Source of the DNA: a virus
Lineage: Duplodnaviria > Heunggongvirae > Uroviricota > Caudoviricetes
Virus record (IMG/VR): IMGVR_UViG_2700989168_000009
Reading direction: 5' to 3' (one strand)
DNA length: 15,890 bases
The position numbers and the translations under genes were made by a program. This document shows, piece by piece, positions 6,859-7,686 of this stretch. Positions within the stretch are counted from its first letter, which is position 1; each line of letters begins with the position of its first letter. The notes beneath the pieces were generated by a model that searched no databases, was not told the origin of the DNA, and saw only the letters and a list, made by a program, of their open reading frames with translations.

Positions 6859-7686
6859 ATGCAGAGAATAATCGAATTACGCCAGCAGAAAACCGCCATT
6901 AAAAATCAGATGCGCGACATGCTGGAGAACGCTGAAAAAGAAAACCGCAGTCTTAACGATGCTGAGGGCGCAAAATTTGACGAATTACGCGCTAAAGCTG
7001 AATCCCTCGATAAAGACATTTCCCGCCTTGAAGCCATTGCAGACGAAGAGCGCAGCAAGCCAGGTAAAAGCAGCCAGACCACTGACCCCGCAGAACTACG
7101 TAACTACATTCTGACCGGTGAAACCCGCGCATTAAGTACAGGCGTTCCCGCTGATGGTGGTTATACCGTTATCCCTGAACTGAACACCGAAATCATGCGA
7201 ATGCTGGCGGATGAATCCACCATGCGTCGCATCTGTACCGTGAAGAAAATCAGCAGCAACGAGTTTAAGCAGCTTGTTTCCGCTGGCGGTGCGACCGTTA
7301 ACCACGGTGAAGAGGGTAAGGCACGCGAACAGACCAGCACCCCGCAGATTAACGAGGTGAGCATTAAGCTGTATCCGGTCTATGCGTACCCGCGCACCAC
7401 ACAGGAAATCGTGGATTTTTCCGATGTGGACATCCTTTCATGGCTGACGGGTGAGATTGGCGACACCTTCACGGAAACCGAAGAAAGCGATCTGGTTGTG
7501 GGCGACGGTGACAAAAAAGCAAAAGGTTTTTTATCCGTACCCCGTGCAGAGAAGAACGACAAAGAGCGTGATTTTGGTACGTTGCAGGTAATTAAACCTT
7601 CCGAATCTCTGGCGTGGACATCTGCGGACCCGCTGATCGACCTGAAATTTGCATTACGTAAAAAATACCGCAAAAACGCGGTCTGA
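6859..7686 (+). CDS. HK97-fold major capsid protein, N-terminal segment (delta/scaffold domain plus first part of the capsid domain); ends at an in-frame TGA (7684-7686)
   Basis: N-terminus MQRIIELRQQKTAIKNQMRDMLENAEK...LRAKAESLDKDISRLEAIADEE is a coiled-coil delta domain. VVGDGDKKAKGFL matches the conserved GDG loop of Phage_capsid-family proteins. ATG 6859 is preferred over the ORF-track GTG at 6811. The same frame continues after the TGA. Confidence 0.75.
   Translation: MQRIIELRQQKTAIKNQMRDMLENAEKENRSLNDAEGAKFDELRAKAESLDKDISRLEAIADEERSKPGKSSQTTDPAELRNYILTGETRALSTGVPADGGYTVIPELNTEIMRMLADESTMRRICTVKKISSNEFKQLVSAGGATVNHGEEGKAREQTSTPQINEVSIKLYPVYAYPRTTQEIVDFSDVDILSWLTGEIGDTFTETEESDLVVGDGDKKAKGFLSVPRAEKNDKERDFGTLQVIKPSESLAWTSADPLIDLKFALRKKYRKNAV

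Follow-up and report, generated by a model that had tools for sequence, protein, structure and literature searches.

An opal codon in place of an invariant tryptophan interrupts the major capsid gene of a putative capsid-forming PICI in Shigella flexneri

The major capsid gene in the window, by which we mean the whole stretch of 15,890 nucleotides that was analyzed, carries an opal stop (TGA, 7684-7686, + strand) in place of the codon for Trp276. It is very probable that a heritable G to A transition turned this invariant tryptophan codon into a stop, and that what we see is the ordinary decay of the capsid gene of a capsid-forming PICI (cf-PICI). The codon changed from TGG to TGA, the mutation has spread in a large S. 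flexneri lineage, and the island that carries it has since drifted.

The capsid frame runs from the ATG at 6859 to the TAA at 8014-8016 on the + strand (385 codons, 1158 nt), and the TGA at codon 276 is the sole internal stop among its 385 codons. A preliminary description of this DNA had reported a frame at 6859-8016 that is open save for one opal codon at 7684-7686 in the context KNAV-TGA-VVNSTT, had seen HK97-family signal on both sides of the stop, and had concluded that this is one gene and not two. Frame and context were confirmed, and both halves score well above the curated cut-off of 24.2 bits for the Pfam family PF05065 (Phage_capsid), the N fragment with 102.6 bits and the C fragment with 84.7 bits. 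The matches are consecutive along the 280 positions of the profile, with 1-166 covered by the N fragment and 169-278 by the C fragment, and thus represent a single domain split in two. Together with homologues that are single proteins of 380-410 aa, this upholds the reading as one gene.

In the mechanical ORF list the capsid frame appears as two entries, 6811..7686 and 7687..8016. The N-terminal fragment (6859..7686, +) encodes 275 aa and contains the scaffold-like delta domain and about the first 60% of the capsid domain, which begins at residue 100 according to the PF05065 match. The C-terminal remnant (7687..8016, +) has 109 codons, the first of which, GTG (Val277), directly abuts the TGA; for this reason gene callers annotate the remnant as an ORF of its own, and GenBank records list the two capsid fragments as separate 'bacteriophage protein' ORFs. 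A hairpin with a 4-bp stem (GTGG-TTAACT-CCAC, 7687-7702) starts at the base after the stop and is also found in all TGG copies. An N-terminal scaffold-like domain and a prohead protease gene (S78) directly 3' of the capsid gene are both present, as looked for in an HK97-fold major capsid gene, while the single unbroken frame for the whole fold is lost at codon 276. Since the stop lies within what is a single protein in 120 of 120 homologue clusters, the locus at 6859..8016 (+) is classified as a major capsid pseudogene of the PF05065 family. This assignment to the HK97 fold agrees with the translation and with the identity to E. coli genes described below. The translation is also about 98% identical over 385 aa to the 'Major head protein' in PDB entry 9gyi_B, which, judged by its 385-aa sequence, appears to be the protein of EcCIEDL933. 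An AlphaFold model of the intact capsid protein (28-sequence alignment) reached a mean pLDDT of 50 and was set aside, and the 9gyi sequence match was used instead.

Comparison with intact copies shows what codon 276 used to be. A 1261-nt region around the gene matches 361 of 5426 complete E. coli genomes with 95-99% identity, each time under the annotation 'phage major capsid protein'. The capsid gene itself shares 97.9-98.9% of its DNA sequence with intact E. coli genes (97.9% with the EDL933 gene), and its length of 1158 nt is also that of the genes in E. coli 14EC001 and O157:H7 EDL933. Relative to these two genes, codon 276 contains a single difference, an A for a G at 7686, i.e., TGG (Trp) to TGA. 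The codon was further examined with 50-nt probes centred on it, for which a megablast match is possible only if the centre base agrees. The TGG probe found matches in 355 complete E. coli genomes, while the TGA and TAG probes each found none among the 5426 searched. Similarly, a TGG 36-mer is present on 35 IMG/VR contigs and served as positive control for the TGA and TAG versions, which occur on no IMG/VR contig; a scan of JGI metagenomes with the TGA 36-mer also found none. As the comparison is made base for base with hundreds of intact copies, chance is not at issue for the TGG to TGA call.

At the protein level, alignment with homologous capsid proteins, the check proposed in the preliminary description, shows that Trp276 is kept in 120 of 120 homologue cluster representatives with 66-99% identity, in an alignment where only 114 of the 385 positions are invariant overall. 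The representatives were drawn from Escherichia, Citrobacter, Salmonella, Morganella, Proteus, Xenorhabdus and Photorhabdus. In the capsid protein of RcGTA, a distant relative with a solved structure, the aligned position is Phe. A natural gene boundary at codon 276 is ruled out by the same set, as all 120 proteins are unsplit single chains of about 380-410 aa. Capsid knock-outs do arise sporadically in this gene family, since one of the 33 full-length IMG/VR copies (contig L035) has an unrelated mutation, Q182 to TAG.

The TGA allele is common in S. flexneri. Among GTDB species representatives, the TGA 36-mer occurs in exactly one, Shigella flexneri SFBU1023 (CP182556.1). Exact copies of the N fragment (275 aa) and of the C fragment (109 aa) were each found on at least 1000 contigs, in both cases from several independent S. 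flexneri accessions, and the N fragment is entered in 3556 index blocks. All seven further independent assemblies that were examined, among them three complete genomes, a metagenome assembly and 2011-era drafts, contain the identical split gene in the same island.

The TGA is not fixed species-wide, since other S. flexneri still have an intact sister allele. This allele (P0150, UniRef A0A2Y5AFR6_SHIFL) encodes a full-length 385-aa capsid protein and is found on 360 contigs, the longest of which is 4.83 Mb. It is the same as the window translation at 383 of 385 codons and differs only in having Trp276 and Glu379. Both have Gln2, which is rare among the E. coli copies examined, most of which have Pro2. 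Codon 379 is GCA (Ala; 7993..7995, +) in the window and GAA (Glu) in the compared E. coli alleles as well as in the intact S. flexneri allele; E379A is therefore a second derived change of the TGA allele, 3' of the stop. A window capsid repaired to Trp276 but keeping Ala379 is absent from a collection of 15 billion proteins. It follows from these sequences that two changes, G7686A and A7994C, gave rise to the TGA allele from an S. flexneri allele, and the latter falls in the now untranslated part of the gene. Because P0150 differs from the window only at Trp276 and Glu379, the stop mutation can be placed within S. flexneri. Two other loci (L006 and L008) have the TGA and Ala379 as in the window, yet carry the E. 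coli-like C at the synonymous sites 7101 and 7227, where the window has T. This pattern implies that the stop is older than the split of these S. flexneri sublineages.

Separate from this lineage, a few E. coli entries also resemble broken capsid genes. One (P0018) is a C fragment of 109 aa that starts at a GTG and has the C terminus of the E. coli type (ELPQDDD); it is present on 17 contigs including one of 5.3 Mb, and a further 109-aa E. coli C-fragment entry (P0017) stands alongside it. P0018 suggests that in some E. coli, too, the capsid gene is interrupted at codon 276 or shortly before it. An alternative for P0018 is a frameshift in the A-runs just upstream of this codon; no complete E. 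coli genome searched has TGA or TAG there. Two 275-aa E. coli entries (P0152 and P0153) have 'partial' among their source names and lie on contigs of about 3 kb, and these may be contig-end artefacts.

From its gene content, the island in the window is best classified as a cf-PICI, the S. flexneri relative of EcCIEDL933/CP-933C. We applied the criterion of a full head and packaging module without tail genes in about 15 kb. The island is approximately 14 kb and is inserted between chromosomal roxA and phoQ, with phoQ (14430..15890, - strand) forming its right border, which is the insertion locus of CP-933C in EDL933. The left arm (1..5515, +) consists of an integrase (1-1230), AlpA (1605-1793), small ORFs, an RgdR-like DUF4222 gene (3471-3770) and a D5_N/DUF5906 primase (3767-5515), and the corresponding domains PF00589, PF05930 and PF08706/PF19263 were found on identical S. 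flexneri loci. Downstream of the capsid gene follow, all on the + strand, an HK97-type prohead protease (S78, 8056..8687, as defined on identical S. flexneri loci), a 403-aa portal protein (8689..9900, PF04860), the head closure protein, head-tail connector, HNH endonuclease and a 60-aa ORF (9897..11258; PF05521, PF05135 and PF01844), and the small (P27-type) and large terminase subunits (11284..13338; PF05119, PF03354 and PF20441). Hence capsid, protease, portal, connectors, HNH, TerS and TerL are all located between int and phoQ, and no tail genes were found between these borders. The roxA/phoQ locus is occupied in EDL933 by CP-933C, also called O-island 51 (PMC3378721), which later work described as EcCIEDL933, the prototype of the capsid-forming PICIs (10.1101/2022.09.08.507074). 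That S. flexneri has cf-PICI-like regions was already pointed out by Alqurainy et al. (10.1101/2022.09.08.507074). The DUF4222 protein encoded at 3471-3770 (+) is full length (99 aa) with an RGD motif and is an RgdR homologue that is intact in the island. In EHEC, RgdR of CP-933C activates LEE type III secretion and represses motility (PMC3378721).

The replication and accessory module is mosaic when window positions 3767-6555 are compared with positions 3975-7419 of the EDL933 locus (L002). The S. flexneri island has a 582-aa D5_N/DUF5906 primase followed by ORFs of 92, 101 and 53 aa, while EDL933 at the corresponding stretch has a 710-aa DUF927 protein, SSB and a PerC-family regulator. The window also contains four N runs, at 8579-8631 (interrupting the protease gene), 10393-10511 and 10866-10915 (both in the connector region) and 11356-11404 (inside terS), the lengths of which mismatch the replaced sequence. 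Their edges show homopolymer-type discrepancies, e.g., GGGGGGGGT at 10857-10865. The source of the window is a draft-quality or gapped assembly, and ORFs called across the N runs are distorted (8056..8676, 10594..10920, 10917..11258, 11337..11693 and others).

In the basal S. flexneri form, all island genes except the capsid gene keep their EDL933 length, and the capsid stop is the only lesion common to all TGA-lineage loci examined. Individual loci have acquired further damage. A metagenome-assembled S. flexneri contig (L005) has a portal nonsense mutation at Q388 (L005 12933), and CP026810.1 (L006) has an IS1 insertion together with a TerL frameshift (L006 5719-6012 and 15541). The window shares with strain 2003036 (L010) a 363-bp deletion of a stretch that is present in other S. 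flexneri loci. The missing sequence lay between two copies of the 23-bp terminator-like repeat CAGCCGGAGCAATCCGGCTTTTT (window 6577-6599; L004 9356 and 9719), and with it a 74-aa ORF immediately upstream of the capsid gene has been lost.

Substitutions in the TGA lineage follow a similar trend. Island-wide, SNPs among the TGA-lineage loci comprise 8 synonymous and 23 non-synonymous changes, with 5 and 13, respectively, in the morphogenesis genes. Compared with EDL933, these morphogenesis genes of S. flexneri show 158 synonymous and 48 non-synonymous changes, and compared with RM6927 they show 137 and 44. The contrast of within-lineage and between-species changes is significant (Fisher p = 4e-5 and 7e-5 for the EDL933 and RM6927 comparisons), with the caveat that recent polymorphism in a clonal pathogen is rich in non-synonymous changes anyway and that the flanking chromosomal genes are too SNP-poor to serve as a control. 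Such a pattern would arise if the module had been under purifying selection as long as it was passing from host to host, and this selection then ceased in the TGA lineage. As gene lengths in the basal form equal those of functional E. coli islands, the decay is shallow and the other island genes could have residual function. The first option in the preliminary description, a TGG to TGA nonsense mutation in a decaying island, is thereby favored: Trp276 is invariant among homologues, and the TGA lineage exhibits signs of relaxed selection as well as added lesions.

Cf-PICIs encode the capsid protein of their small T=4 heads themselves and rely on a helper phage only for tails. In the S. flexneri lineage with the stop, translation would end after Val275, and the 275-aa product would retain the scaffold-like domain at its N terminus and, of the capsid domain, roughly the first 60%. 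A product without the last 110 of about 293 mature residues would likely not complete the HK97 fold, and the TGA allele is for this reason regarded as probably null. The head of EcCIEDL933 is a T=4 shell of its own capsid protein, which is cleaved so that the mature protein begins at residue 93 (He et al., 10.1101/2025.02.11.637232). Point mutants in every packaging-module gene of EcCIEDL933 abolish transfer, except those in gene 1792, where transfer is severely reduced, while replication is unaffected (10.1101/2022.09.08.507074). Conversely, mutations in the capsid module of the helper phage eliminate the phage and leave island transfer intact (10.1101/2022.09.08.507074), which means that island and phage capsids are made independently. 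Given that EcCIEDL933 packaging-module mutants lose or nearly lose transfer, the S. flexneri island is expected to have lost the ability for self-packaging. By analogy, we predict that it has lost both the production of its own small capsids and transfer on helper-phage tails. Lacking island capsids, it would be neither packaged nor transferred and would be inherited only vertically. Additionally, Rho-dependent polarity might affect the downstream protease and portal genes.

Other explanations assign the TGA a function or a technical origin. A Trp-tRNATrp that sometimes decodes the UGA would restore wild-type capsid protein, since the ancestral residue is Trp, and could support low, perhaps temperature- or physiology-dependent, head formation and mobility. 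In E. coli no stop codon is leakier than UGA, and a K-12 reporter gave about 2% read-through at 37 C and about 4% at 25 C by competition of Trp-tRNATrp with RF2 (PMC10570021); the other morphogenesis genes, moreover, are all full length in the basal S. flexneri island. However, RF2 of K-12 is unusually weak, and with the RF2-B allele native UGA read-through is undetectable (PMC5373646), where we assume that S. flexneri has the stronger allele. About 235 subunits are required for a T=4 head, whose assembly is concentration-dependent, so a few per cent of full-length subunits amid an excess of truncated ones would be unlikely to nucleate it, and the excess fragment, which retains the scaffold-like domain, could even poison assembly. 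Neither is there a sign that the site has adapted to read-through: no homologue uses TGA at codon 276, the region 7366-7745 is otherwise identical to a TGG-bearing copy and has thus evolved no stimulatory context, the fold downstream of the UGA is ordinary (z = -0.54), and the island-wide relaxed selection argues against anything being maintained. Leaky decoding with such effects is therefore very unlikely. It is likewise very unlikely that a trickle of wild-type capsid makes this a conditionally mobile satellite, more so at low temperature or high tRNA-Trp, rather than a dead one. Some incidental low-level read-through at 7684-7686 may still take place, but the third option in the preliminary description, a site that relies on read-through, does not fit homologues without TGA, flanks that match TGG copies and the missing recoding signal. 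Programmed recoding, by selenocysteine insertion or an island-borne suppressor, has nothing in its favor beyond the UGA itself. The UGA is conserved in 0 of 120 homologue clusters, the window contains no tRNA gene that could act as suppressor, no Rfam family was matched, and neither a SECIS element nor an extended hairpin was found after the UGA; the probability of such recoding is negligible.

The truncated gene might instead be functional, either as a dominant-negative fragment against incoming HK97-type phages or other cf-PICIs, or as a split capsid in which the C fragment is re-initiated at GTG. The N fragment still has the delta domain together with some of the capsid domain, its exact 275-aa sequence occurs very widely, and the GTG right after the TGA makes termination-reinitiation conceivable. 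The wide spread is nevertheless explained by clonal descent in a young pathogen, and the GTG is merely the codon of the conserved Val277 (V in 110 of 120 homologues), without a Shine-Dalgarno motif ahead of it. The C fragment has the non-conservative change E379A, other island genes are drifting, and we know of no description of a split HK97 capsid protein. A functional truncation thus seems very unlikely. Finally, a sequencing or assembly error, the second option in the preliminary description, would have been plausible had the window stood alone, considering its draft-quality source and the four N runs with homopolymer-type edge discrepancies. It is refuted by the exact truncated products on at least 1000 contigs (3556 index blocks) and by the same TGA allele in seven other independent assemblies, complete genomes and a metagenome included, and its probability is practically nil.

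The element family and the type of lesion are both already known, and beyond annotation the finding has little importance: the two S. flexneri 'bacteriophage protein' ORFs should be read as one cf-PICI capsid pseudogene. S. flexneri strains with TGG (P0150) and TGA do, on the other hand, form a near-isogenic natural pair for asking whether cf-PICIs are mobile in Shigella. The pair could also show what a satellite that is presumably immobilized but has its RgdR-type regulator intact contributes to its host.

The closest known system is EcCIEDL933 (CP-933C, O-island 51 or Sp7 of E. coli O157:H7 EDL933), with which the S. flexneri island shares the roxA/phoQ locus, the int-alpA left arm, the RgdR/DUF4222 gene, the absence of tail genes, and the order and lengths of the genes for capsid, protease, portal, head closure, connector, HNH, TerS, TerL and a 93-aa ORF. 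It differs in its host, in the interruption of the capsid gene at codon 276, in having the D5_N/DUF5906 primase rather than the DUF927 protein, and in the region between primase and capsid. The intact S. flexneri allele differs from the truncated form also in abundance, with 360 contigs against at least 1000. Functional UGA read-through in a capsid gene is found in Qbeta, where tRNA-Trp reads through the coat gene at a few per cent to give A1. The two cases have in common a UGA inside a capsid frame and an enterobacterial host, but the short product of Qbeta is a complete functional coat protein and its UGA is conserved, whereas here more than one third of the fold is missing and the UGA is lineage-specific. 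Pseudogenes and IS elements abound in the genomes of Shigella, and the pseudogenes of Shigella and of cryptic prophages show the same course as the island described here, i.e., a single-base nonsense mutation in a gene of a mobile element that spreads clonally and is then followed by strain-specific IS1 insertion, frameshift, nonsense mutation and deletion. The present case differs from them in nothing of kind; what sets it apart is that the lost gene is the satellite's own capsid gene, the element's only packaging route.
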